The notes under the pieces were generated by a model. That model had not been told where the DNA came from. It did not search any database and was given only the letters and a program-made list of their open reading frames with translations. A stretch of 46,966 nt of DNA from Christensenellales bacterium (GTDB taxonomy: Bacteria; Bacillota; Clostridia; Christensenellales; UBA1750): positions 1-46,966 of the forward strand of contig JBNRMR010000091.1 in assembly GCA_050309705.1 (NCBI GenBank), in the 5' to 3' direction. Position 1 is the first letter of the stretch. Every line of letters starts with the position of its first letter. The translations under genes were made by a program, and so were the position numbers. Positions 1,372 to 44,105 of the stretch are shown one piece after another.

Positions 1372-1632
1372 ATAAAAAAACCGCCTATAATGTTATAGAA
1401 GGCGATTTGGCCGCGTTACCACTTCAGTTCTCCAAAGGGGGCGCCTTGGCCGCGTTTTGGAATCTCTTGCCGCTATATCGGGCGGAACCGTCAGCCTCTA
1501 CTGGAGGCAGGGCCTCTTTCAAAACTGCCGCTCCGGGATGTACTTCATGAAGAAACGCCCCCCGCTTGCACCTTCCGCGGGCTCTCTTTGCGCGTCTTTC
1601 CCCACTAATCTTCCCATCTCTGCGTTTTTATT
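1372..1632 (-). promoter_or_regulatory. T-box riboswitch, Tyr specifier (UAC)
   Basis: Minus strand carries AGAGA and GGUG stem-I motifs, specifier region GAAG-UAC-A (codon at 1540-1542), T-box AACUGAAGUGGUAACGCG (1412-1429), then a terminator hairpin and U-run (1374-1404). Confidence 0.88.
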
Positions 1633-23818: not shown

Positions 23819-23965
23819 TTCTATACCCCTGTTTCTTCAGAATAACAAAACACCCGCGGCTTTGGCCGGGGCGCAGACAACCACCCAACGCAGATTCAAC
23901 CTGCTTGGGCTGAGAAGTCATGCACTCCATGCACTGTGGAGCCATAACGGACCGCGCGAGGGCGG

Positions 23966-24164
23966 CCGGCAAAAGGCAGGTCTTCCGGCTTGGGCATCGT
24001 CGCTATCCCCGTCTTCCCGGCATAGTCGCCAGTGACATGCTGGGGATCGCTCTTCCCATACGGCGGCAGGACCGCTCAGGCATTGCGCTTTTGCTTTACG
24101 CGCTTACCTGATTCCCTATTATCGCACCCGGCCCCGGTGATGGGGCTGTGCGCACCTTTGCCGA
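23966..24164 (-). ncRNA. Cobalamin riboswitch
   Basis: Minus strand: AAAGGUGC...AAUAGGGAAUCAGGU...GCGGUCCUGCCGCCGUA...GUCACUGG...CCGGGAAG...AAGCCGGAAGACCUGCC (B12 box). Confidence 0.93.
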
Positions 24165-24204
24165 TATTCTGTTTGAATAATTATACCAGTGCGCTAAAGG
24201 GCTG

Positions 24205-33662: not shown

Positions 33663-34436
33663 CTATTTTTCCAGCGAAGCGTGGATGGCCCTGAGCGCGG
33701 CTGAAAGCTCCTCCACGGGGATCTGCCCCGGAGCGGAAATGCCTGAAAGGTCTCCCGCCGAGCCGAATGTCATGGCGGAGCCAAAAATCTCCCCGCTCAT
33801 GCGGCTGACAGTTCCCAGGCCCGACATGGCCATGGTCACCAGCGGCCGCCTAGCATGGAGCCTGCGCATCCTTTCAGTGGCGCAGAGCAAGGTCAGAACA
33901 TCCTGCGGGCTTTTGGGCATCACAGCGATTTTCAGTATATCCCCGCCCATATCCTGCATCTTTTTGAGCCTTGAAACAATCTCATCCTCATCGGGCGTTT
34001 CCTCAAAATCGTGGTTGGATATGAGCGCCGCAACCCCCGCTGCGTGCAGGGCGCCGACCACCTGCAGGGCATTTTCCCGCATCATTTCCACGTCGATTAT
34101 GTCGGCAAAGCCGCTTTTCGCCGCCGCCTCGTTCAGCTTATGGTAATTCGCCGGGCAAAAATCCGCCTGTCCTCCCTCGGCCTTTGTCCTGACAGTGAAC
34201 AGGAGCAGCTTTCCGCCGATGATTTCGCGAACCGATCCAAGAACAGACATCGTTTCCTCAACATTTTCAAGCGCTTCGAAAAAATCCGCCCGCCATTCCA
34301 CTGCGTCTACCGGAAGGCTATTCATCTTAAGCGCTCTTTGGACAATTTCACCTCGCGAAGCCGCAACTATGGGTGCGACTATCTTCGGAATGCCGCTGCC
34401 AATCTTAACGCCTCTGATTGTGACCACATTTCCCAT
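33663..34436 (-). CDS. aroD: Type I 3-dehydroquinate dehydratase
   Basis: VEWRADF, FTVRTKAEGG, SNHDF, LKIAVMP, SAPGQI. Confidence 0.95.
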   Translation of the reverse strand: MGNVVTIRGVKIGSGIPKIVAPIVAASRGEIVQRALKMNSLPVDAVEWRADFFEALENVEETMSVLGSVREIIGGKLLLFTVRTKAEGGQADFCPANYHKLNEAAAKSGFADIIDVEMMRENALQVVGALHAAGVAALISNHDFEETPDEDEIVSRLKKMQDMGGDILKIAVMPKSPQDVLTLLCATERMRRLHARRPLVTMAMSGLGTVSRMSGEIFGSAMTFGSAGDLSGISAPGQIPVEELSAALRAIHASLEK

Positions 34437-34439
34437 GGC

Positions 34440-35561
34440 CTAAATGCATCGATAGCAGCCCAGCACCTCGAAATAGGTGCAGGTGTCAGCGGCCTGCTCT
34501 AATGCGCTTTTCACGCTATCGTCCATTATGTTTCCCTCTATTTCGGCAAAGAAGCGGTATTTCCCCTGGCCTGCGGGCCTAGACTCTATGCGCGTCAGGT
34601 TGATGCTCTGGGCGTGGAAGGACATCAGCGTTTCGCAAAGGGCGCCGCTTCTGTGCTCAGTGGCGAATGTGGCAAGAATGCGGGTGGAGTTTTCGTCATA
34701 CTCCGGCTGCGTGGCTATTATCACAAAGCTGGTTTTGTTGCCCTTGGAATCGGCGATATCATCTGCGAGTATTTCCAGACCGTTAAGCTCCGCTGCTTTT
34801 GGCGATGCTATTGCCGCGGAAAAGCCGTCATTCGCCATGGCGATCTCCTGCGCGGCGACAGCGGTATTGCGGCATGCCACTTGCTCCCAGCCGCCCTGAC
34901 GCAGAAACCTGCCGCACTGCTTCAGAGCCTCGGGGTGGGAAAGCACCCGCTTGATTTCAGCAAGCTTCACGCCCCTTGGAGCCAGCAGGCACTGGCGGAT
35001 ATCCTGCTCCACTTTGCCCACCACAGAGCAACCGTTCCTGCGCAGAAGGTCATAGGTTTCGCCGATGGCGCCCGTGCGTGAGTTTTCAATCGGCACTATG
35101 CCGTAATCAGCGGCGCCCTCCTTCACGCAGCGGAAAACGTCGTAGAAATACTCCGCCGCGAAGCGCTTTGCGCCGGGAAAAGCCCTCTCAAGGGCCTGCT
35201 CGCTCCAGGAACCGGGGACTCCCTGATAGGCGCAGGTGATATCTCCGGTCTTGGGCTCGCTCGGGCTTGAAATGAGCCGGCTATGGGGCATGAGCAGCTT
35301 GTGCTGGTGGGCCCGCGACAGCGCCATAAGGGTGCGCATGGCCATCGTCAGGGACATGCGGTACTCCTCCTTAACCCTTTGCGCCGCCCGGTCAATCACC
35401 TGCTGTTCGCGGCTGGTGTCCATTATCGAAAGATTGTTTTCCCGCTTGATCTGCGCAGCAAGGCCCGCGATCTCCATGCGTCTTTCCAGCAGTGGTATGA
35501 GCTTTTCGTCCACCTCGTCTATCTGGCGGCGGATGTCCGCCAAGGCTTCCTTATGATTCAT
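34440..35561 (-). CDS. pheA: Chorismate mutase/prephenate dehydratase (with ACT domain)
   Basis: N-terminal IRRQIDEVD (CM), AYQGVPGSWSE, VPIENS, SHPEALKQC, NLTRIESRP. Confidence 0.92.
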   Translation of the reverse strand: MNHKEALADIRRQIDEVDEKLIPLLERRMEIAGLAAQIKRENNLSIMDTSREQQVIDRAAQRVKEEYRMSLTMAMRTLMALSRAHQHKLLMPHSRLISSPSEPKTGDITCAYQGVPGSWSEQALERAFPGAKRFAAEYFYDVFRCVKEGAADYGIVPIENSRTGAIGETYDLLRRNGCSVVGKVEQDIRQCLLAPRGVKLAEIKRVLSHPEALKQCGRFLRQGGWEQVACRNTAVAAQEIAMANDGFSAAIASPKAAELNGLEILADDIADSKGNKTSFVIIATQPEYDENSTRILATFATEHRSGALCETLMSFHAQSINLTRIESRPAGQGKYRFFAEIEGNIMDDSVKSALEQAADTCTYFEVLGCYRCI

Positions 35562-35595
35562 GACTTTGCCTCCTCATTTCGTTATCACTTTATCT

Positions 35596-36615
35596 TTAAT
35601 CGTTCAAATTCACCTGAACAGCGTCTCTAACTCGGCCCAGATGCCTCATCAGCTTATGGAAAAGCTCCGGAGTGATGGACTGAGCGCCGTCGCACAGGGC
35701 CTTTTCCGGCTGGTTGTGCACTTCAATAATAAGGCCGTCCGCCCCCGCAGCGGCAGCCGCCAAGGCCATGGGGTAGACAAAATTCCAGTGGCCGGTGCCA
35801 TGGGAGGGGTCCACCACCACGGGCAAATGGCTCTTTTCCTTCAGCACTGGAACGGCTGAAAGATCCAGCGTGTTTCTGGTGGCGGTTTCAAATGTGCGTA
35901 TACCCCTTTCGCAGAGTATCACATCCTTGCTGCCCGACGCCATCAGATATTCGGCCGCCATCAAAAGCTCCTCTATGGTGCTGGAAAGGCCGCGCTTCAG
36001 CAAAACGGGCTTGCCTATCTGCCCCACTTCCCGAAGGAGCTGGAAGTTTTGCATGTTTCTGGCCCCCAGTTGGATGATATCAACCTCCCGGGCGAAAACC
36101 CCCAGATGGGCGGGGGACATGATCTCCGTCACTATGGGCAGGCCTGTCTTTTCCCGGGCGATCTTCAAAAGCTCCAGCCCATCCAAACCCAGGCCCTGGA
36201 ACGCATAGGGTGAGCTTCTGGGCTTGAATGCGCCGCCGCGAAGGAATGATGCCCCGGAAAGACAGACATCCCGGGCGATGGAGAGTATCTGCTCCTCGCT
36301 TTCAACTGAGCAAGGCCCGGCCATGACGGCAAAGCTGCCCCCACCGATCTTCCTGCCGGAAACCTCCACCACCGTGTCCTGGGGGTGAAAGCGCCTGCCG
36401 GCGAGCTTGTAGGGCTCTTGGACCTTCATTATGCGATCAACGCCCTTCCAGCGGCTGACTTCCTCTGTGGAAACGCCGGAGGTATCCCCCACCACGCCGA
36501 TAACCCTGGCTGTCTGGCCGTCAAGATTGTGCAGGGAAAGCCCTCTTGCAAGAAGATTTTCCTGGGTTGCGCGTATGTTTTCGTCCGTTGCGTCTGGTTT
36601 GAATACAATAATCAT
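35596..36615 (-). CDS. aroF: DAHP synthase type I-beta with N-terminal regulatory domain
   Basis: AGPCSVE, GGAFKPRSSPY, GARNMQNF, LLKRG, CERGIRTFE, VDPSH. Confidence 0.95.
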   Translation of the reverse strand: MIIVFKPDATDENIRATQENLLARGLSLHNLDGQTARVIGVVGDTSGVSTEEVSRWKGVDRIMKVQEPYKLAGRRFHPQDTVVEVSGRKIGGGSFAVMAGPCSVESEEQILSIARDVCLSGASFLRGGAFKPRSSPYAFQGLGLDGLELLKIAREKTGLPIVTEIMSPAHLGVFAREVDIIQLGARNMQNFQLLREVGQIGKPVLLKRGLSSTIEELLMAAEYLMASGSKDVILCERGIRTFETATRNTLDLSAVPVLKEKSHLPVVVDPSHGTGHWNFVYPMALAAAAAGADGLIIEVHNQPEKALCDGAQSITPELFHKLMRHLGRVRDAVQVNLND

Positions 36616-37976
36616 AGATTTGTCCTTTCATCGCCGCCCGGCGGGTCTATGGATGATATGACTTTTTTATAGAACTCTTTTCTGTCCAGTTTAAGGCTAA
36701 AATATATCTCGTCCGCCAAAATCGCTTGATATATCAGCATCGAAAGGCCGTTCATGGTTTCAAGGCCCTGTGCCTGCGCCTGCTCCATCAGGCCTGTTAC
36801 CGATGGGCTATAGACCATGTCGCAGACCAACGCACCCTTCGGCAAAGCTTTAAAAACCTCTGCCATGTTACCAAGGCTGCCTCCCACGCCAGACATCTCA
36901 AGGGGCAGAGTGTTGATGAAGATATCGCAGTTCTCGGCGGATTTTTTCATCGAAATGACGCTTAAGTCTCCACCCTTGCCAGCGCTTCCTCCTGAAAGGG
37001 ATAAGGCCTGCCTGACTGCTTCCTCACGCCTGCCGTGAACGTTGATGACATTAGCGCCCTCCTTCGCCGCCTGCAAAACAGCTCCAACCGCTGCGCCTCC
37101 GGTGCCCAGGATCATCACACTGCTGCCCTTGTACTCTTTTCCCCTGTCCTTAAGCGCTAGAGAAAAGCCCAACATGTCCGTGTTAAAGCCCAAGAGCCTG
37201 CCCTCATTTTTGACGACTGTGTTCACCGCTCCGCAAAGCCTTGAATCGTCATCGACTTCATCCAGCAAGGGCATTATCGCCTGCTTGTGGGGGTGGGTCA
37301 CATTGAAGCCCTTCAACGGAAAACCCCGCGCCCTTTGAACGAAGGCTTCAAGCTCCTCCGGCCGCACCCAGCACGAAATATAGTCATCGCGGATATTCAG
37401 CGCGCCAAACACCGCTTTGTGTATCGGCGGCGAAAGACTATGGGTTATCGGATGGCCGATCACAGCGTAGTCCTTTTTTATTAAGCGGGCGTTAATCAGC
37501 GTAACCAGCTCCAAAACCGCTTCGTCCTCAGTGCCTTCATTTTTGTAGACGACATCCGCCGAGGAAAGGTACAGAGGCCTTCGCTGCTTTTCCATGGCGT
37601 AGAGCTTGTCTGGGCCAGCCTTCAGCAAGGGACGCTCGCCACAGCTGATGTCTTTTATTATCATGCCAACTGGTCTGTCGATGAATATCACAAGACCCTT
37701 GCGCACCATGATATCGATATTTTCTTCCCGAAGGACAATACCTCCGCCCGTTGCGATCACGGCATTTCCCGCGGATACGGCCTTTTTGAGCTGCCGGCTT
37801 TCAATCTCCCGGAAAAAGGTTTCGCCCTTTTGCGTAAATATTTCCGCTATCGGCATCCCCTGGCTTTCGGTGATCATCTCGTCCACATCAACCCGCCGCA
37901 TATCAAGGGCCTTCGCCAACCTTGTCGCCAAGCTGCTCTTTCCGCTGCCGGAAAGCCCTGTCAGCAATATGTTCAT
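36612..37976 (-). CDS. Fused shikimate kinase (N-terminal) / shikimate dehydrogenase (C-terminal)
   Basis: GLSGSGKS, GETFFREIE, ATGGG and RP (AroK), then GHPITHSLSPPIH, NVTHPHK, GAVNT, NTD, DMVY and GLSMLIYQA (AroE). Confidence 0.92.
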   Translation of the reverse strand: MNILLTGLSGSGKSSLATRLAKALDMRRVDVDEMITESQGMPIAEIFTQKGETFFREIESRQLKKAVSAGNAVIATGGGIVLREENIDIMVRKGLVIFIDRPVGMIIKDISCGERPLLKAGPDKLYAMEKQRRPLYLSSADVVYKNEGTEDEAVLELVTLINARLIKKDYAVIGHPITHSLSPPIHKAVFGALNIRDDYISCWVRPEELEAFVQRARGFPLKGFNVTHPHKQAIMPLLDEVDDDSRLCGAVNTVVKNEGRLLGFNTDMLGFSLALKDRGKEYKGSSVMILGTGGAAVGAVLQAAKEGANVINVHGRREEAVRQALSLSGGSAGKGGDLSVISMKKSAENCDIFINTLPLEMSGVGGSLGNMAEVFKALPKGALVCDMVYSPSVTGLMEQAQAQGLETMNGLSMLIYQAILADEIYFSLKLDRKEFYKKVISSIDPPGGDERTNL

Positions 37977-39046
37977 ATTCCCCGCCCCCTGTGTTCCATC
38001 AGAAGATCCAGCAGGCAAAGGGCCACCACGGACTCCGTTACGGGCAGCGCCCTGGTTACAATGCAGGGGTCATGCCGCCCCCCCGATGCTATCTTCACCG
38101 GCTCAAGCGTCTTGCCATCCAGTGTGTCCTGAGGTATGGCTATGGTGGACGTGGGCTTTATGGCCGCCCGGACGATTATCGGCATCCCGTTTGTAATGCC
38201 CCCTTGAATGCCCCCGGCGTTGTTGGTCCGGGTTTGTATTTTGCCGTCATTCAGCACTATCGCGTCGTTGGACTGGCTGCCGCGAAGCCGGCTTAGCGGG
38301 AAGCCCCCGCCGAATTCAACGCCTTTGACCGCAGGAACTGAGAACAGCAGCCTTGCAATCTCGCTTTCAACTGAGCGGAAAAAGGGTTCGCCAAGCCCTG
38401 CCGGAGCGCCAAACGCGCAGATCTCCACCACGCCGCCCACGGAGTCGCCATCCTCTTTAGCAGCGATTATGGCCCTTTGCATTTTTTCGCCCGCGCAGTC
38501 ATCAACGACATTGAAGCTCTTCTGTGCTGCCTGCAAAAAGTCCTTGCGGCTTCCGCATTTGCCATCCTCAATCCCCGCAATCTCTTTTATGCGGCCGAAA
38601 ATCTCCACGCCTCTTCGGGCAAGAACCTGCCTTGCAATGGCCCCGGCGAACACCAGCGGCGCTGTGATTCTGCCGGAAAAATGTCCGCCTCCGCGCATGT
38701 CCGCGTGGCCGCTGTATTTTAGCAAAGCGGTCAGATCCGCATGGCCCGGGCGCAGCTTGCTGTCATAATCCCGGGAGCGGGCGTCTTTGTTGAATATTAC
38801 CGCGCCAATGGGCGAACCGGTGGCCTTTCCCATATGAACACCGCTCAAAATCTCCACGCTGTCGGCCTCCTTGCGCGAAGTGGTGATGGCGCTCTGGCCG
38901 GGCGCACGTCTTTTCATCTGCTCCTCCACCGCCAAAAGATCAATCTCCTCCCCAGCGGGAAGGCCATCGATCACCACGCCAATGCCCCTGCCGTGGGATT
39001 CGCCAAATATCGAGAGTCTGAGCATATTTCCCCATGTTCCTGCCAT
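37973..39046 (-). CDS. aroC: Chorismate synthase
   Basis: FGESHG, RPGHAD, GGGHFSGR, GGITNGMP, KPTSTI, GRHDPC. Confidence 0.96.
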   Translation of the reverse strand: MAGTWGNMLRLSIFGESHGRGIGVVIDGLPAGEEIDLLAVEEQMKRRAPGQSAITTSRKEADSVEILSGVHMGKATGSPIGAVIFNKDARSRDYDSKLRPGHADLTALLKYSGHADMRGGGHFSGRITAPLVFAGAIARQVLARRGVEIFGRIKEIAGIEDGKCGSRKDFLQAAQKSFNVVDDCAGEKMQRAIIAAKEDGDSVGGVVEICAFGAPAGLGEPFFRSVESEIARLLFSVPAVKGVEFGGGFPLSRLRGSQSNDAIVLNDGKIQTRTNNAGGIQGGITNGMPIIVRAAIKPTSTIAIPQDTLDGKTLEPVKIASGGRHDPCIVTRALPVTESVVALCLLDLLMEHRGRGI

Positions 39047-39047
39047 G

Positions 39048-40295
39048 CTACATATCCTCCTTTTCAAAATCAGCCCAGAAATTCGGATAGGATTTCTTCA
39101 CGCTTTGCCAACCGGTGAGGTTCACCTTTTCATTGCAGCGAAGGGATGCCAGGGCCACCGCCATGGCGATCCGGTGATCGTTGCAGGCATCGGCGCTGCC
39201 GCCCCTGATCATATCCTTGCCCCTGATGACAAGACCGTCCGGAAGCTCCTGTATATCTGCGCCCAGAGCGCCAAGCTGACGGGCAAGGGCGCTTAGACGG
39301 TCGCTTTCCTTAATGCGAAGCCTTGCCGCATCCACGATTTTGCTTTCGCCCCGGCAAAAACAGCAAAGAGCGGCAATGGGCGGCACCAGGTCGGGGATCT
39401 GCGCGGCGCTGACGGTCACAGCCTTCAGCTCCTGTGCGGAAACTGAAATGATACCGCCCTTGCGCGTGATTTTCGCCCCCATTTCCTCCAGCACCTTCAA
39501 AATCGCTCTGTCTCCCTGGAGGGAGTTTTCATCAAGGCCCGCGCATGAAACATCCCATCCCAAGGCCGCCGCTCCCAGAAAAAACGCTGCCTGAGAGTAA
39601 TCGCCCTCCACTTCGCAGCTATTTACGGGCGTATATCGCTGATTTCCCCTGATTGAGTATCCCCTTTCATTCTGCTGGACGAAAACACCGAATCGGGCCA
39701 TCATGTCTATTGTCATGTCAACATAGGCCCTGGATTCCAAGGGCGTGGTCAACAGTATTTCGCTGTCGCCCATGGCCATGGGTAAAGCCAGCAGCAGCCC
39801 CGAAACGAACTGGGAGCTGACATCGCCGGCGAGGGAATAGCCTCCGCTTCTAAGCCGCCCGGAAACGCTCACGCCGCCTTTCTCCCAGGTGAAGTTCACG
39901 CCGGATTTTTCAAAAATTTCAGCATATGCGTCAAGGGGTCTTTCCATCAACCGCCCACGCCCTGTGAAAGTGACGGCCTTACCCAGAGCGGCGGCTATGG
40001 GCAGAAGGAAGCGCAGAGTTGAGCCGGACTCGCCGCAGTCCACTGTTTGCTTCACTTCGCCGCCCTGATCAACAGCGGAAATGTCATCGCCCGCTCGCTG
40101 AAAACGGAAGCCCAGGGCCTCCATAGCGCCAATGGTGGCGTCGATATCCTGTGATTTCCCCGGGGATTTTATCAACGTCCGTCCATTTCCCGATGCCAGC
40201 GCCGCGCAAATGATGGCCCTGTGGCCCATGCTCTTTGATGGGGGAACCTGCACCACACCCTTCGGTCCACCATTTATAATCTTAACATCAAGCAT
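39048..40295 (-). CDS. aroA: EPSP synthase
   Basis: PPSKSMGHR, CGESGSTLRF, SSQFVSGLL, EGDYS, RIKESDR, DHRIAM, KSYP. Confidence 0.96.
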   Translation of the reverse strand: MLDVKIINGGPKGVVQVPPSKSMGHRAIICAALASGNGRTLIKSPGKSQDIDATIGAMEALGFRFQRAGDDISAVDQGGEVKQTVDCGESGSTLRFLLPIAAALGKAVTFTGRGRLMERPLDAYAEIFEKSGVNFTWEKGGVSVSGRLRSGGYSLAGDVSSQFVSGLLLALPMAMGDSEILLTTPLESRAYVDMTIDMMARFGVFVQQNERGYSIRGNQRYTPVNSCEVEGDYSQAAFFLGAAALGWDVSCAGLDENSLQGDRAILKVLEEMGAKITRKGGIISVSAQELKAVTVSAAQIPDLVPPIAALCCFCRGESKIVDAARLRIKESDRLSALARQLGALGADIQELPDGLVIRGKDMIRGGSADACNDHRIAMAVALASLRCNEKVNLTGWQSVKKSYPNFWADFEKEDM

Positions 40296-41355
40296 TTTTC
40301 CACATCCTTTCCATATGCGGTGAAAGCTCCTGCCGGGAAATTTTTTTAACCCCCGCCTCCCCTATGCTTTTAAGCAATATCAACCGCAGAGCGCCGTCTT
40401 CGTTCTTCTTATCATGCATCATCCCTTCGATCACGTCCTCAACTGAGTAAGGCGCTGTGACGGGCAGTCGGAAGGCCTCCAGCTTATTTACAATCTTCCT
40501 GGAAACCCCTGGCTCTGTGAAGCCCAGGGATTCGCCAACCTTTGCCGCCATGGCCATTCCAATGGCCACCCCCTCGCCATGAATGTATTCCCTGAAGTTC
40601 CCCAGGGCCTCGATTGCGTGGCCGAATGTGTGGCCGAAGTTCAACAGCATCCGAAGCCCCCTGTCCAGTTCGTCGGCTTCCACCACCCGGCGCTTGATGT
40701 CGCAGCACTCGCATATGATGCCCGCGATATCCTCAGCTGATTTTTCCGGGTTTTCAAGGCGGTCAAAAAGACTGCCGGAAAGAATTGCACCATATTTTAT
40801 GATCTCCGCCCAACCGCCTCCCCACTCCCTTTTGGGCAAAGTTTCAAGCATGCCGGTGTCAATCAGCACCCTTGCCGGCTGGTGGAATGCCCCCACCAGA
40901 TTCTTGCCCTCGGGGATATTTATGGCCGTCTTGCCGCCGACGCTGGAGTCCACCTGGGCAAGTAGCGTGGTGGGAATTTGCACATACGAAACGCCCCGCA
41001 TGTAGGTGGCAGCCGCGAAGCCGCATATGTCGCCCACGACGCCTCCCCCGAAGGCGATCAGCAGATCATTCCTGGCAAACTGCGCCCTTGCCAGCGCGCC
41101 GTGTATCGCCTGTAGATTATCAAAGGACTTGGCCTCCTCTCCGGGCTTCAAGGGGATAATCTGCCGGGGAAGGCCTGCTTTTTCAAGAAGCTGCTCCATC
41201 CTCTCTCCGTGAAGGCGCCAAACATTCTCGTCCGTCACAACAGCCAGCCTGCCGCAGGGGAAGTCCTCCGCCGCGGCTATGACTTCATTCAGCGCACCCC
41301 TGCCGATCAATATATCATAGCTGTTTTCGCCCAATCCAACCTTCAGCGTCTTCAT
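40288..41355 (-). CDS. aroB: 3-dehydroquinate synthase
   Basis: GGGVVGD, YMRG, PTTLLAQVDSSVGGKTA, KNLVGAF, LNFGHTFGHAIE, HGE. Confidence 0.97.
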   Translation of the reverse strand: MKTLKVGLGENSYDILIGRGALNEVIAAAEDFPCGRLAVVTDENVWRLHGERMEQLLEKAGLPRQIIPLKPGEEAKSFDNLQAIHGALARAQFARNDLLIAFGGGVVGDICGFAAATYMRGVSYVQIPTTLLAQVDSSVGGKTAINIPEGKNLVGAFHQPARVLIDTGMLETLPKREWGGGWAEIIKYGAILSGSLFDRLENPEKSAEDIAGIICECCDIKRRVVEADELDRGLRMLLNFGHTFGHAIEALGNFREYIHGEGVAIGMAMAAKVGESLGFTEPGVSRKIVNKLEAFRLPVTAPYSVEDVIEGMMHDKKNEDGALRLILLKSIGEAGVKKISRQELSPHMERMWKNA

Positions 41356-41395
41356 TGCAGCACCTCATCATCAGTAAAATTCCACTCGTCTTTAT

Positions 41396-41437
41396 AAAAG
41401 AAAAAGCGAGAGGATTCAGATTCATGAACCCTCTCGC
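41396..41437 (-). terminator. Attenuator terminator hairpin upstream of aroB
   Basis: Minus strand GCGAGAGGGUUCA-ugaauc-UGAAUCCUCUCGC followed by a U-rich tail, about 40 nt before the aroB start. Confidence 0.9.
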
Positions 41438-41466
41438 CACTAGTTTTAAGGCTGGTTTGATATTAT

Positions 41467-41586
41467 TCAAACATTCGCAAGTCCATGACAGGCTCTATTA
41501 TTTTTGCAGTAAAAATAGCCGAAACCAAAATAGTTCCTGCTAAAGCTAAAATAATAGGACTTGCTAATGGACATTGCAGCGTACAT
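41467..41586 (-). CDS. Tyr/Phe-rich leader peptide of the aro operon (39 aa)
   Basis: RBS GAAGGGG, then MYAAMSISKSYYFSFSRNYFGFGYFYCKNNRACHGLANV*. It has 6 Tyr and 5 Phe, 10 of them within codons 11-26, and sits directly upstream of a terminator. Confidence 0.85.
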   Translation of the reverse strand: MYAAMSISKSYYFSFSRNYFGFGYFYCKNNRACHGLANV

Positions 41587-41647
41587 TTGAAACCCCTTCG
41601 CCGCTTTTTGCATCCGTTTATGTCGGCGGCCATCATAATTGATTACT

Positions 41648-41675
41648 AGTATAACCCAATGCGGGAAAAAATCAA
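41648..41675 (-). promoter_or_regulatory. sigmaA-type promoter of the leader/aro operon
   Basis: TTGATT-16 bp-TATACT, with an A-rich tract upstream. Confidence 0.6.
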
Positions 41676-41705
41676 GCCTTTTCTTTATTTCTTTTTTCTT
41701 GTTAA

Positions 41706-42554
41706 CTAGCGCTTTGCCTTCTCTGCTTCGTTAAGCTGTTCTTTAATTATGCGGCCCTGCCTGAGCATTTCGCAAAGGGCCGTTTCATCTCTTTCGTCGA
41801 TGGCCTCTTTAAACTCTGTAAGCTTTGATATGAGCTGAGAAAGCTGCAATGAAAGAAAGTCCGTGTTGCAGAGGAAAAGTTCCGTCCACATCTTCTCGTG
41901 GAGCTTGGCCACCCGCGTCATGTCCCTGAAGCTGCCGGCGCTAAAGCCTCCGTGGCGCAGGGATGCCGGGTTTTGCACATAGGCGCTTGAAACGATATGG
42001 GCCATCTGCGACGTAAGGGCGATCATCTCATCATGCTTTTCCGGAGTGGCATATGTTATGCTGCCAAAGCCCAGCCGCAGGAAGAAAAGCTCAGCCAGAA
42101 GGCAATGGCTCTTTGATATATGTTCCGACGGCGTGAGTATCATGCTTGCGCCTTCAAACAGATTTTCGTCCGATGCGTCAAAGCCGAAGAACTCCCGGCC
42201 CGCCATGGGATGCCCACCGATATAGACTGCGTCCTTGCCGGAAAGCAGCGCCTCAATCTCGCTGCAGACTCTGCGCTTCACACCGCATATATCCACCAGC
42301 ATGCAGCCCGCAGGGATATCGCCTGCATTTTGCCGCACGAACTCCACCGCCGCCTTGGGATACAGCGCAATCAATATCATGTCCACGTTCTGGGGGATTT
42401 TTCGCACGCCCTCGTCGATGGCGCCGCAGCCCAGCGCCTTTTTCATCACTTCGTCGGACATGTCCCAGCCGGCCACGGTGTCGCCCGTTTTCGCCTTTAT
42501 TGCCTTGGCGAATGAGCCACCCATTAGCCCCAGCCCCACGATCAATACCTTCAT
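41706..42554 (-). CDS. tyrA: Prephenate dehydrogenase
   Basis: GLGLMGGS, DICGVK, GGHPMAGRE, HDEMIALTSQMAH, GSFRDMTRVA. Confidence 0.93.
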   Translation of the reverse strand: MKVLIVGLGLMGGSFAKAIKAKTGDTVAGWDMSDEVMKKALGCGAIDEGVRKIPQNVDMILIALYPKAAVEFVRQNAGDIPAGCMLVDICGVKRRVCSEIEALLSGKDAVYIGGHPMAGREFFGFDASDENLFEGASMILTPSEHISKSHCLLAELFFLRLGFGSITYATPEKHDEMIALTSQMAHIVSSAYVQNPASLRHGGFSAGSFRDMTRVAKLHEKMWTELFLCNTDFLSLQLSQLISKLTEFKEAIDERDETALCEMLRQGRIIKEQLNEAEKAKR

Positions 42555-42647: not shown

Positions 42648-42986
42648 CTACATGCTAACTATCCGATATCCCTTTTCGATATACGCCTTCATTCCCGCGT
42701 GGCCGGACATATCATCCAGCATGGCAAGGCCCAGAGCGGCGTTTTGCTCGTATACGCCCATAACCTTGGAGCAGGCCAGGCAAGCCCCTGCGATAATTCC
42801 CGCTTCCTTCGCCTTCTTATAAAGCGGGTTTCCCTCGGCCGCAAAAACTGGCGGCAGCTTCACCGATGCTCCCTCGAATATAATCCTCACTTCATTGCCG
42901 CCCGCAGCTAGATCCAGCGCGTTAAGCAAAACATGCTGAAAGCACATTTTCTCTCCCGTCATGCCGTAAAACAAAACTTTTTCCAT
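42648..42986 (-). CDS. DsrE-like small protein
   Basis: HVLLNALDL, IIFEGASVK, ACLACS, MSGHAG; AGGAG RBS. Confidence 0.7.
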   Translation of the reverse strand: MEKVLFYGMTGEKMCFQHVLLNALDLAAGGNEVRIIFEGASVKLPPVFAAEGNPLYKKAKEAGIIAGACLACSKVMGVYEQNAALGLAMLDDMSGHAGMKAYIEKGYRIVSM

Positions 42987-43091
42987 GCTCCTGCTCCTTC
43001 CGCTTAAGTTTTCATCCATTTGCAGTATTATAGCATGACATCGCTCAACCGACAACCGTTGCTCTTGCCGATTCAAAAGCAAATAGTAGTT

Positions 43092-43904
43092 TTAGAAGCT
43101 TGTGGGAGACTTGCCGTGCCTTTCCTTAAACACCTTTAAGAAGTTGGACATTGAGTTGAACCCGCTTGCAAAGCAAATCTCCGTGACGGAAAGCCCGCTT
43201 GACCGCAAAAGCTTTTTTGCATAGTTAAGCTTCAGCGTCGTCAAGTAGCTGATATATGTTTGACCAGTCGCCTTTCGGAACATCTCGCTGAAATAATTGG
43301 GGTTTAAGTTTATCTCCCTTGCAGTTTCCGTCAATGTTGGGCTGTCTTTAAAGTTCAAATGCATATATAAAATTGCTTTTTGAACAGGTGTTTTAAGAGG
43401 CTCTTCTTTTTGGGGGTGAGGAATATCCATTCTTCTTAACATCCATATGAAAAGGCATTCCAGCAAATTGTGCATGTATTGCTTTTTATAAGCGTTGCCG
43501 CTGCCAAACTCATTGTACATCAGTTTTGCTATGGCAGTTACTTCTTCAAATTGCATTTGGTCAACATTAACGAACATGTTATTGTCTTCATTCAAAATGA
43601 CTTGAAGAAGCTCATCGGACAAAAGGCCCGCGCTGAACACCACATTATATAATTCCATCTTGCTGTCCACCCTAATTTCGTGAAAATCAGTAGGCCTTAA
43701 CAAGTATGCGCTCCCTCTTAGCATGGGATATTCTTTTCCATTCAAAACCTGTCTGCCGCTTCCGCTTAAAATTATTTCTATTTCGAAATATTCATGCCAG
43801 TGGTTTTTGAAGTCTTTGCTCAGTTCCCTTCTCGACACGGATATCTGCCAATTCTTGTCAACCCATTCTTGAGCTAAAAGATGCGGCCCTTCAATGTGAC
43901 CCAT
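43092..43904 (-). CDS. AraC family regulator (cupin + HTH)
   Basis: HWHEYFEIE; C-terminal LNPNYFS and SVTEICFASGFNSMSNFLKVFK...SP. Confidence 0.92.
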   Translation of the reverse strand: MGHIEGPHLLAQEWVDKNWQISVSRRELSKDFKNHWHEYFEIEIILSGSGRQVLNGKEYPMLRGSAYLLRPTDFHEIRVDSKMELYNVVFSAGLLSDELLQVILNEDNNMFVNVDQMQFEEVTAIAKLMYNEFGSGNAYKKQYMHNLLECLFIWMLRRMDIPHPQKEEPLKTPVQKAILYMHLNFKDSPTLTETAREINLNPNYFSEMFRKATGQTYISYLTTLKLNYAKKLLRSSGLSVTEICFASGFNSMSNFLKVFKERHGKSPTSF

Positions 43905-44105
43905 GAAAAACACCTCAGCAATATTATATTGCATTTTTTCGTTATTTCAACCACAAATCTGAAATTAAGATATAATATGCTTAGTTTTTGGGAAGCAACT
44001 TTGCCTGGTTTTTGATAAAATGTGCTTTGTAGGATTCAGCTATATCACCTGCCTGCATTCAGCCGTCTGCGCGCAAAATTATGAAAAGAAAATGGAGGTT
44101 CAGTC

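Follow-up and report, generated by a model that had tools for sequence, protein, structure and literature searches.

The stretch of DNA analysed here (the window) comprises 46,966 nt from a Christensenellales bacterium (GCA_050309705.1, contig JBNRMR010000091.1, positions 1 to 46,966) and contains an operon of aromatic amino acid biosynthesis whose first gene, aroB, is preceded by a short open reading frame (ORF) rich in Phe and Tyr codons and by an intrinsic terminator. On the minus strand, on which all leader features are given, the order is tyrA, a promoter-like site, a GCCGC hairpin, a Shine-Dalgarno (SD) sequence, the leader ORF, the terminator and aroB. The leader ORF (MYAAMSISKSYYFSFSRNYFGFGYFYCKNNRACHGLANV) extends from an ATG at 41586 to a TGA at 41467, giving 39 codons plus the TGA, and the SD sequence AAGGGG (41593..41598) lies 6 nt 5' of the ATG; codons 11-26 (41509..41556) constitute a regulatory run, YYFSFSRNYFGFGYFY, in which 10 of the 16 codons specify Phe or Tyr. 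The terminator (41396..41438) is separated from the ORF by 28 nt and consists of a 14-bp stem (41438-41405; 7 of the 14 pairs are G-C; -22.9 kcal/mol) with a loop of 6, followed by TTTTTCTTTT, and aroB (41355-40288) lies 49 nt beyond it. Downstream, the genes aroB, aroA, aroC, an aroK-aroE fusion, DAHP synthase, chorismate mutase/prephenate dehydratase and aroD (33663..41355) were assigned by Pfam for each ORF and represent the common aro pathway plus pheA. An earlier interpretation made from the letters alone (the sequence-only reading) had described an ORF led by a ribosome-binding site with these coordinates and pairings, a strong terminator with a U-tail and seven downstream aro genes, all of which read as it stated. 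The leader is probably a ribosome-mediated attenuator that senses the charging of Phe-tRNA and Tyr-tRNA, a reading to which we assign a probability of roughly 0.8.

Regarding the aromatic run, 2,892,218 stop-free 16-codon stretches were counted in the six frames of the 2.37-Mb genome (52% G+C), and just three of them, including that of the leader, contain at least 10 Phe/Tyr codons. The 261-nt leader RNA has a predicted fold of -77.7 kcal/mol compared with a shuffle mean of -57.8 kcal/mol (z = -4.47; none of 200 dinucleotide shuffles was as good). In the minimum-energy fold, the 5' arm of a long 1:2 hairpin (segment 1, 41557..41590) contains the start codon and codons 1-10, the 3' arm (segment 2, 41465..41506) contains the last codons and the stop codon, and the aromatic, Ser(AGC) and Gly(GGY) codons form an apex hairpin (41516..41542). 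This 1:2 hairpin (-40.3 kcal/mol) encloses the complete ORF, its start and stop codons included, pairing GUCCAU (41575-41570) with AUGGAC (41486-41481) and CUAUUAUUUU with AAAAAUAAUAG. The 1:2 segments first noted, 41569-41557 and 41484-41472, do pair at 12 of 13 positions (-15.2 kcal/mol), as the sequence-only reading had it, but the energetically favoured register is a different one and the noted register is degraded in the congener.

A second pairing partner for segment 2 is found in the terminator itself. The strand UCAUGGACUU (41479..41488), which lies within segment 2 and within the ORF (codons 33-36), is complementary to GGGUUCAUGA (41422..41431), made up of the distal part of the terminator 5' arm and the start of the loop. 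The pairing of 41488-41479 with 41431-41422 is gapless at 10 of 10 positions (-11.5 kcal/mol) and was equalled by 1 of 1000 shuffles (p = 0.001), so that the 2:3 antiterminator proposed from the letters was confirmed at the level of complementarity. For this comparison, a gapless complement of the 10-nt segment was sought between the aromatic core and the terminator, with 1000 shuffles.

The leader was compared with those of other genomes, in which G000 denotes the window's genome, G001 its congener and L-numbers the other loci compared. A DNA-level search in 61 relatives gave G001 as the sole match (86% over 300 nt), the remainder being short chance matches; in G001 the leader ORF is intact with six amino-acid changes and the whole terminator is identical to that of G000. 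Among aroB-anchored loci, taking one genome per species, a similar ORF was present in 6 of 80. Six-frame searches with a peptide profile in samples of 400 Clostridia genomes and 401 genomes of the phylum placed leaders at 10 of 21 and 4 of 12 non-self places, respectively, and the other 11 and 8 places were rejected as leaders; the 10 leaders of the Clostridia search precede aroF, with the contig at L138 stopping before the gene. A degenerate DNA motif used on metagenome contigs returned 80 loci, of which 8 belong to the family and 72 are unrelated, and the metagenome locus L230, which has the family ORF in a cut-off form, was excluded. The resulting set of 28 leaders consists of that of the window, 6 that were aroB-anchored, 10 from Clostridia, 4 from the phylum and 7 from metagenomes. 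Conserved Tyr/Phe-rich small ORFs and covarying helices, which the sequence-only reading had suggested looking for in related Clostridia, were found in this set.

All 28 leaders have a terminator (25 located by script, and those of L062, L129 and L135 set by hand), and an aro gene begins 25-174 nt past it in all 27 loci with downstream DNA, the first gene being aroF in 20, tyrA in 3, aroB in 3 and aroA in 1. The leader ORFs range from 24 to 60 codons and their best 16-codon stretch contains 7-12 Phe, Tyr or Trp codons in every case. The suggestion that Phe and Tyr are sensed but not Trp holds for the window, whose leader peptide has no Trp codon, but does not extend to the family, since 13 of the 28 peptides contain one or two. 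When an SD-like motif 4-14 nt before an ATG, GTG or TTG was looked for, SD and start were detected in the frame of the aromatic run in 24 of the 28 leaders, whereas the two remaining frames gave 4 and 6 of 28. The peptide motif YYFxFS...F(S/G)xGYF shared by these ORFs is largely the sequence of the apex hairpin.

Regarding the RNA structure of the family, single-sequence folds have a common plan consisting of the long 1:2 hairpin, the apex hairpin, short linker hairpins and the terminator; the 1:2 hairpin pairs the SD, start and N-terminal codons with the C-terminal codons, and the aromatic codons form the hairpin at its tip. RNAalifold applied to a MAFFT alignment of the 28 leaders recovered the apex hairpin (94.6% of cells paired; both sides changed in 3 of 6 pairs) and the terminator (92.5% paired; both sides changed in 8 of 9 pairs). 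The overall covariation score was 0.641, compared with 0.320 for shuffles (0 of 500 as high) and 0.13-0.25 when the partners were slid, a score that is favoured by the structure having been derived from the alignment on which it was scored. The 1:2 helix cannot be aligned by column, and each 5' region was instead ranked against the 3' regions of all 28 leaders; the leader's own partner had a median rank of 2 of 28 and a mean rank of 5.9, where 14.5 is expected by chance. Sequence conservation of the distal terminator 5' arm and the first loop bases (GGUUCAxx or GCUCAUUA, for example; alignment columns 317-326) hints at a second pairing partner for this arm.

The antiterminator strand is misaligned between subgroups by MAFFT, and its pairs were therefore scored per sequence and not by column. 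At least 9 of 10 pairs are possible in 19 of the 28 leaders, the other nine scoring 6-8 of 10, and individual p values of 0.05 or below were obtained for 15 of 28 leaders where about 1.4 would be expected; the mid-rank of the cognate strand was 4.25 compared with an expected 14.5. In 17 of the 19 leaders with at least 9 of 10 pairs, the 5' strand of the antiterminator lies wholly within the ORF. At positions 2, 3 and 7 the leaders use several Watson-Crick pair types, and the variants include CAUGGAC/GUUCAUG in the window, GAUGGAC/GUUCGUC in L049, UUUGAGCC/GGUUCAAA in the group of L129, L131, L132 and L136, AAUGAG/CUCAUU in L134 and L152, GAUGAG/CUCAUC in L141 and AGUGAG/CUCACU in L159. The 1:2, apex and 2:3 helices thus covary across the family.

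The effect of ribosome position was modelled on the window transcript, cut before the terminator 3' arm and with a 33-nt ribosome footprint masked. Without a ribosome the 1:2 hairpin forms in place of the antiterminator, for which 0 of 10 pairs are then predicted, whereas 9 pairs form with the ribosome at Tyr11, 10 at Ser16 and 0 at the stop codon; in this model a stall early in the Tyr/Phe run would free the 2:3 pairing as had been proposed. Applied to the 19 leaders with at least 9 of 10 antiterminator pairs, the model predicts the antiterminator for 12 when the A site is placed within the first six codons of the run and for 1 when the ribosome is at the stop codon. The measure "terminator arm paired" under the same ribosome masks did not discriminate between states.

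From these data the following mechanism may be proposed. Transcription would start near 41640, and a ribosome would load at the SD sequence and translate the 39-codon leader. With Phe-tRNA and Tyr-tRNA well charged, it would reach the stop codon and cover or pass the strand UCAUGGACUU, so that with this strand covered the 14-bp terminator would form and transcription would end near 41400; without any ribosome, the 1:2 hairpin would hold the same strand, with the same termination outcome. With charged Phe- or Tyr-tRNA scarce, the ribosome would stall in the YYFSFS...GYFY run, cover segment 1 and open the 1:2 hairpin, and the freed strand would pair with the terminator 5' arm and loop before the 3' arm has been transcribed, allowing the polymerase to continue into aroB...aroD. 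A ribosome stalled at the first aromatic codons would cover segment 1 because this segment (codons 5-10) directly precedes the run, and during stalls deeper in the run segment 1 might be covered by queued ribosomes, the run of about 48 nt corresponding to roughly 1.5 footprints.

Several observations weigh against this interpretation. In the single-ribosome model of the window, placing the A site at codon 20, 25 or 26 leaves no antiterminator, because the 1:2 hairpin re-forms behind the ribosome; of the 19 modelled leaders, 7 lack the antiterminator when the A site is at the first six run codons and 7 form it without a ribosome. When the shuffle test was based on energy, the antiterminator of the window was unexceptional (z = -0.8), and the test reached significance in one subgroup only (z from +0.2 to -4.1). 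At -11.5 compared with -22.9 kcal/mol, the antiterminator is also the weaker of the two competing helices, and once the 3' arm is included the terminator always takes its 14 of 14 pairs, from which it follows that read-through would have to be kinetic. Read-through at the Escherichia coli trp attenuator is kinetic as well. Regarding translation of the ORF, four of the 28 leaders (L159, L202, L231 and L063) fail the strict rule for SD and start, with a purine-rich motif slightly farther upstream in L159, L202 and L231 and none in L063, and L181 passes by way of an upstream TTG only, its chosen ATG having no SD. Furthermore, tyrA lies upstream of the attenuator in the window and is consequently outside its control.

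The remaining difficulty is that the leader is more conserved at the nucleotide level than its codons need, which implies strong constraints on the RNA that could serve another ligand, and for this reason the main alternative is a riboregulator that works independently of translation, in which a protein, tRNA or small molecule bound to the conserved long and apex hairpins would determine whether antiterminator or terminator forms and the ORF would be a by-product of paired sequence rich in U and A. G000 and G001 share about 73 identical nt in the core while their aroB proteins are 77% identical, 79 of the 145 Ser codons of the 28 leader ORFs are AGC, and the Gly codons are mostly GGY, a bias that is attributable to the pairing of UUU-AGC repeats (UAGCU) with GGC-UAY repeats (GGCUA); the UAGCU/GGCUA hairpin would thus account for the "FSFS...GYGYF" motif of the peptide, and the fold z-score given above is in keeping with a structured RNA. 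Such a regulator nevertheless does not account for the excess of SD and start in the frame of the aromatic run over the other frames, for a reading frame that continues across the antiterminator strand in 17 of 19 leaders, or for the N-terminal YYF-type codons, which vary synonymously (TAT/TAC, TTT/TTC) and lie outside the conserved helices in several leaders, and no Rfam family, T-box included, matches the leader. We therefore regard it as unlikely.

A conserved peptide acting in its own right, either as a sensor by TnaC-like arrest of the nascent chain or as a small hydrophobic protein expressed together with the aro genes, would be in line with the near-invariant G-Y-F followed by C-K-K-like residues in the peptide alignments and with the 85 protein clusters called for such ORFs (described below). 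However, the conserved residues are encoded by stretches of paired RNA (apex hairpin, 1:2 arms and antiterminator strand), the peptide is not conserved outside these stretches, no Pfam or NCBIfam family matches, and induction by free Phe or Tyr would presumably be of the wrong sign for a biosynthetic operon; given above all the coincidence with paired RNA, a functional peptide is very unlikely. Least probable of all is a chance ORF beside an ordinary leaky terminator, or beside the terminator of tyrA, with no regulatory role. Although tyrA lacks its own terminator and stops just 30 nt short of the -35 hexamer in the promoter-like site, the arrangement is kept in 28 leaders, including those of distant Clostridia, and always before aro genes, the aromatic run is among the top three of 2.89 million stretches and the helices covary; conservation of the arrangement thus effectively excludes chance.

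Attenuation by a translated leader peptide, the preferred reading, could be realized here in a special form. In such a distinct sub-type of attenuator the Phe and Tyr codons would be written as a codon palindrome, UUU-AGC against GGC-UAY, whose hairpin caps a 1:2 helix running from start to stop, the run of about 16 codons would accommodate two stalled ribosomes, stalling would be actively tuned by the hairpin together with the conserved G-Y-F-C-K-K peptide, and the signals of Phe, Tyr and sometimes Trp would be summed in an element unrelated to the uORFC-13-1 motif discussed below. This elaboration is doubtful and is offered tentatively.

Regarding known RNA families, a cmscan search of positions 41100-42000 with 4227 Rfam 15 families at E<=10 gave four unrelated weak matches and neither a T-box nor a leader family (Phe, Leu/phe RF01743, Trp, His, Thr or Leu), and a scan of 13 related loci at E<=1 gave nothing relevant, so that the check for an existing Rfam family raised by the sequence-only reading returned no relevant match. 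A T-box, a riboswitch or another described RNA family was accordingly rejected as the identity of the leader on the basis of Rfam 15. Scanning of the whole window detected a cobalamin riboswitch (23958-24173, minus strand, 98.8 bits), one T-box (1395-1629, minus strand, 94.3 bits with a cut-off of 93) and two tRNAs, all away from the leader. Outside the leader, the genome has T-box matches (RF00230) at 15 places, of which 3 exceed the curated cut-off, and T-boxes and the leader peptide hence coexist in this genome. Searches of Pfam and NCBIfam at E<=10 gave no credible match for any of 17 peptides, each library yielding three matches to single members (best E 0.029 and 0.087). A peptide-profile search with the 28 peptides against 5.8 billion proteins returned 85 clusters at E<=0.001, called "hypothetical protein" wherever a source names them, which include several cultured Clostridium species (C. 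polyendosporum, C. grantii, C. algifaecis, C. thailandense and C. algoriphilum) and a Cellulosilyticum.

Leader-peptide attenuation is described for the E. coli pheA attenuator (pheL) in PMC11802643, and, like the pheA, trp and his attenuators, the element combines an SD-led short ORF in which the regulated codons are abundant with 1:2, 2:3 and 3:4 helices and a terminator. It differs from them in having no likeness of sequence or structure by Rfam at E<=10, in its longer ORF (39 codons; 24-60 in the family), in mixing Phe and Tyr, sometimes with Trp, over about 16 codons, in its Clostridia host and in that a conserved hairpin made of these codons caps a 1:2 hairpin running from start to stop. 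In Corynebacterium glutamicum, the aroR leader of the aroF operon (Neshat et al. 2014, as cited in PMC11802643) contains a Phe-Tyr-Phe sequence and acts through ribosome stalling according to that account; it likewise has both Phe and Tyr codons before a DAHP-synthase operon, while, compared by description, it belongs to the Actinobacteria, has three aromatic residues and is described in PMC11802643 as unaffected by Tyr availability.

A further parallel is the uORFC-13-1 motif (Brewer et al. 2021, PMC8632094), a candidate upstream ORF (uORF) before aroF that immediately precedes an intrinsic terminator and for which attenuation was proposed, with 24 representatives given there as coming only from Acholeplasma and environmental sequences. 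Its features as described in PMC8632094 are a promoter, a ribosome-binding site, a start codon, a U-run coding for Phe, a terminator and one extra base-paired element, and the present family likewise fits the outline of a uORF with ribosome-binding site, start, Phe codons and terminator, with aroF as first gene in 20 of 27 loci. In the window the first gene is aroB and not aroF, and from the published description the two could represent the same family, sister families or unrelated ones. Leader-peptide attenuators are also described in Firmicutes, where T-boxes are the rule, namely the Leu/phe leader RF01743 of Lactococcus lactis (PMC2864571) and the His leader peptides of bacilli (PMC2965389), which concern other amino acids and genes and of which no covariance model matches the leader of the window. 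With the T-box (RF00230) the element shares the principle that uncharged tRNA favours an antiterminator, and the target genes are the same in many Firmicutes, but here sensing would go via the translating ribosome and not by direct binding of tRNA. No description of the Clostridial leader family was found in the literature covered, which left out most subscription journals. The family thus appears to be an undescribed but conventional group of ribosome-mediated attenuators of aromatic operons in Clostridia. The novelty considered in the sequence-only reading appears to stand for the Clostridial family but is smaller than first assumed, since aroR and uORFC-13-1 already provide examples of control of aro genes by leaders with Phe or Tyr codons.

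Upstream of the leader ORF in the window, a sigma-70-type promoter-like site, TTGATT-16 nt-TATACT (41648..41675), was located by a consensus scan with 9 of 12 matches, and both hexamers are the same in G001, where the spacer is 1 nt longer. A hairpin GCCGC...GCGGC (41600..41630), seen by inspection of the sequence, as was the SD, adjoins the SD on its upstream side; its stem (41630-41600) is kept in G001 with a shorter and different loop, and it might be a 5' stabiliser. The gene tyrA (42554-41706, Pfam PDH_N/PDH_C) is followed upstream by an ORF of 144 aa (42648-43082) and a gene for an AraC-family regulator with HTH_18 and AraC_binding domains (43092-43934), all on the minus strand. The position of tyrA varies among the loci compared: it is upstream of the attenuator in the window and in G001, downstream as first gene in L049, L063 and L055, and directly after aroF, with the attenuator upstream, in L129, L130, L133, L134, L136, L198 and L220. 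In the window, the promoter and leader look to have been inserted between tyrA and aroB.

Within the window's taxonomic family the leader was detected in 2 of 20 genomes (G000 and G001), and in the 15 other family genomes inspected directly upstream of aroB, with the exception of G001, aroB follows another aro gene without a leader. The aroB proteins of G000 and G001 have 40-46% identity to those of members of the family and 51% to that of L049, a metagenome-assembled genome (MAG) of Peptococcaceae, whose aroB is the nearest relative outside the genus and which carries a leader with the same xGL-type antiterminator strand. The patchy distribution (2 of 20), together with the finding that the closest aroB from outside also has a leader, suggests that operon and switch may travel together by joint horizontal transfer. 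Non-Clostridia source labels are attached to L055 (a termite-gut MAG labelled Actinomycetes) and to protein P0093 (a MAG labelled Spirochaetaceae), and could represent binning errors or transfers. Genomes of genus g4 of the same taxonomic family (L040 and L042-L046) conserve a hairpin that resembles a terminator (GGGGAGCGGTG...ATCGTTCCCC with a T-run) between pheA and aroB, about 60-110 nt 5' of aroB; as this hairpin is without an aromatic ORF, these genomes use a different arrangement.

At the level of the family the result is conceptually expected, as the mechanism is known from the pheA, trp and his attenuators. It does, however, correct the working rule that Clostridia and other Firmicutes control their aromatic genes via T-boxes or proteins, in that many Clostridia, among them cultured Clostridium species, have a member of this family of probable attenuators in front of an operon beginning with aroF, tyrA, aroB or aroA. 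The family also provides an example of codon choice overlaid on RNA pairing, the FSFS...GYGYF motif of the peptide doubling as a hairpin, and offers a compact switch that would respond to Phe and Tyr. Recognition of these elements would improve annotation, in that the small ORFs would be called as leaders and not as orphan genes, and would improve the reconstruction of regulons in gut and environmental anaerobes.

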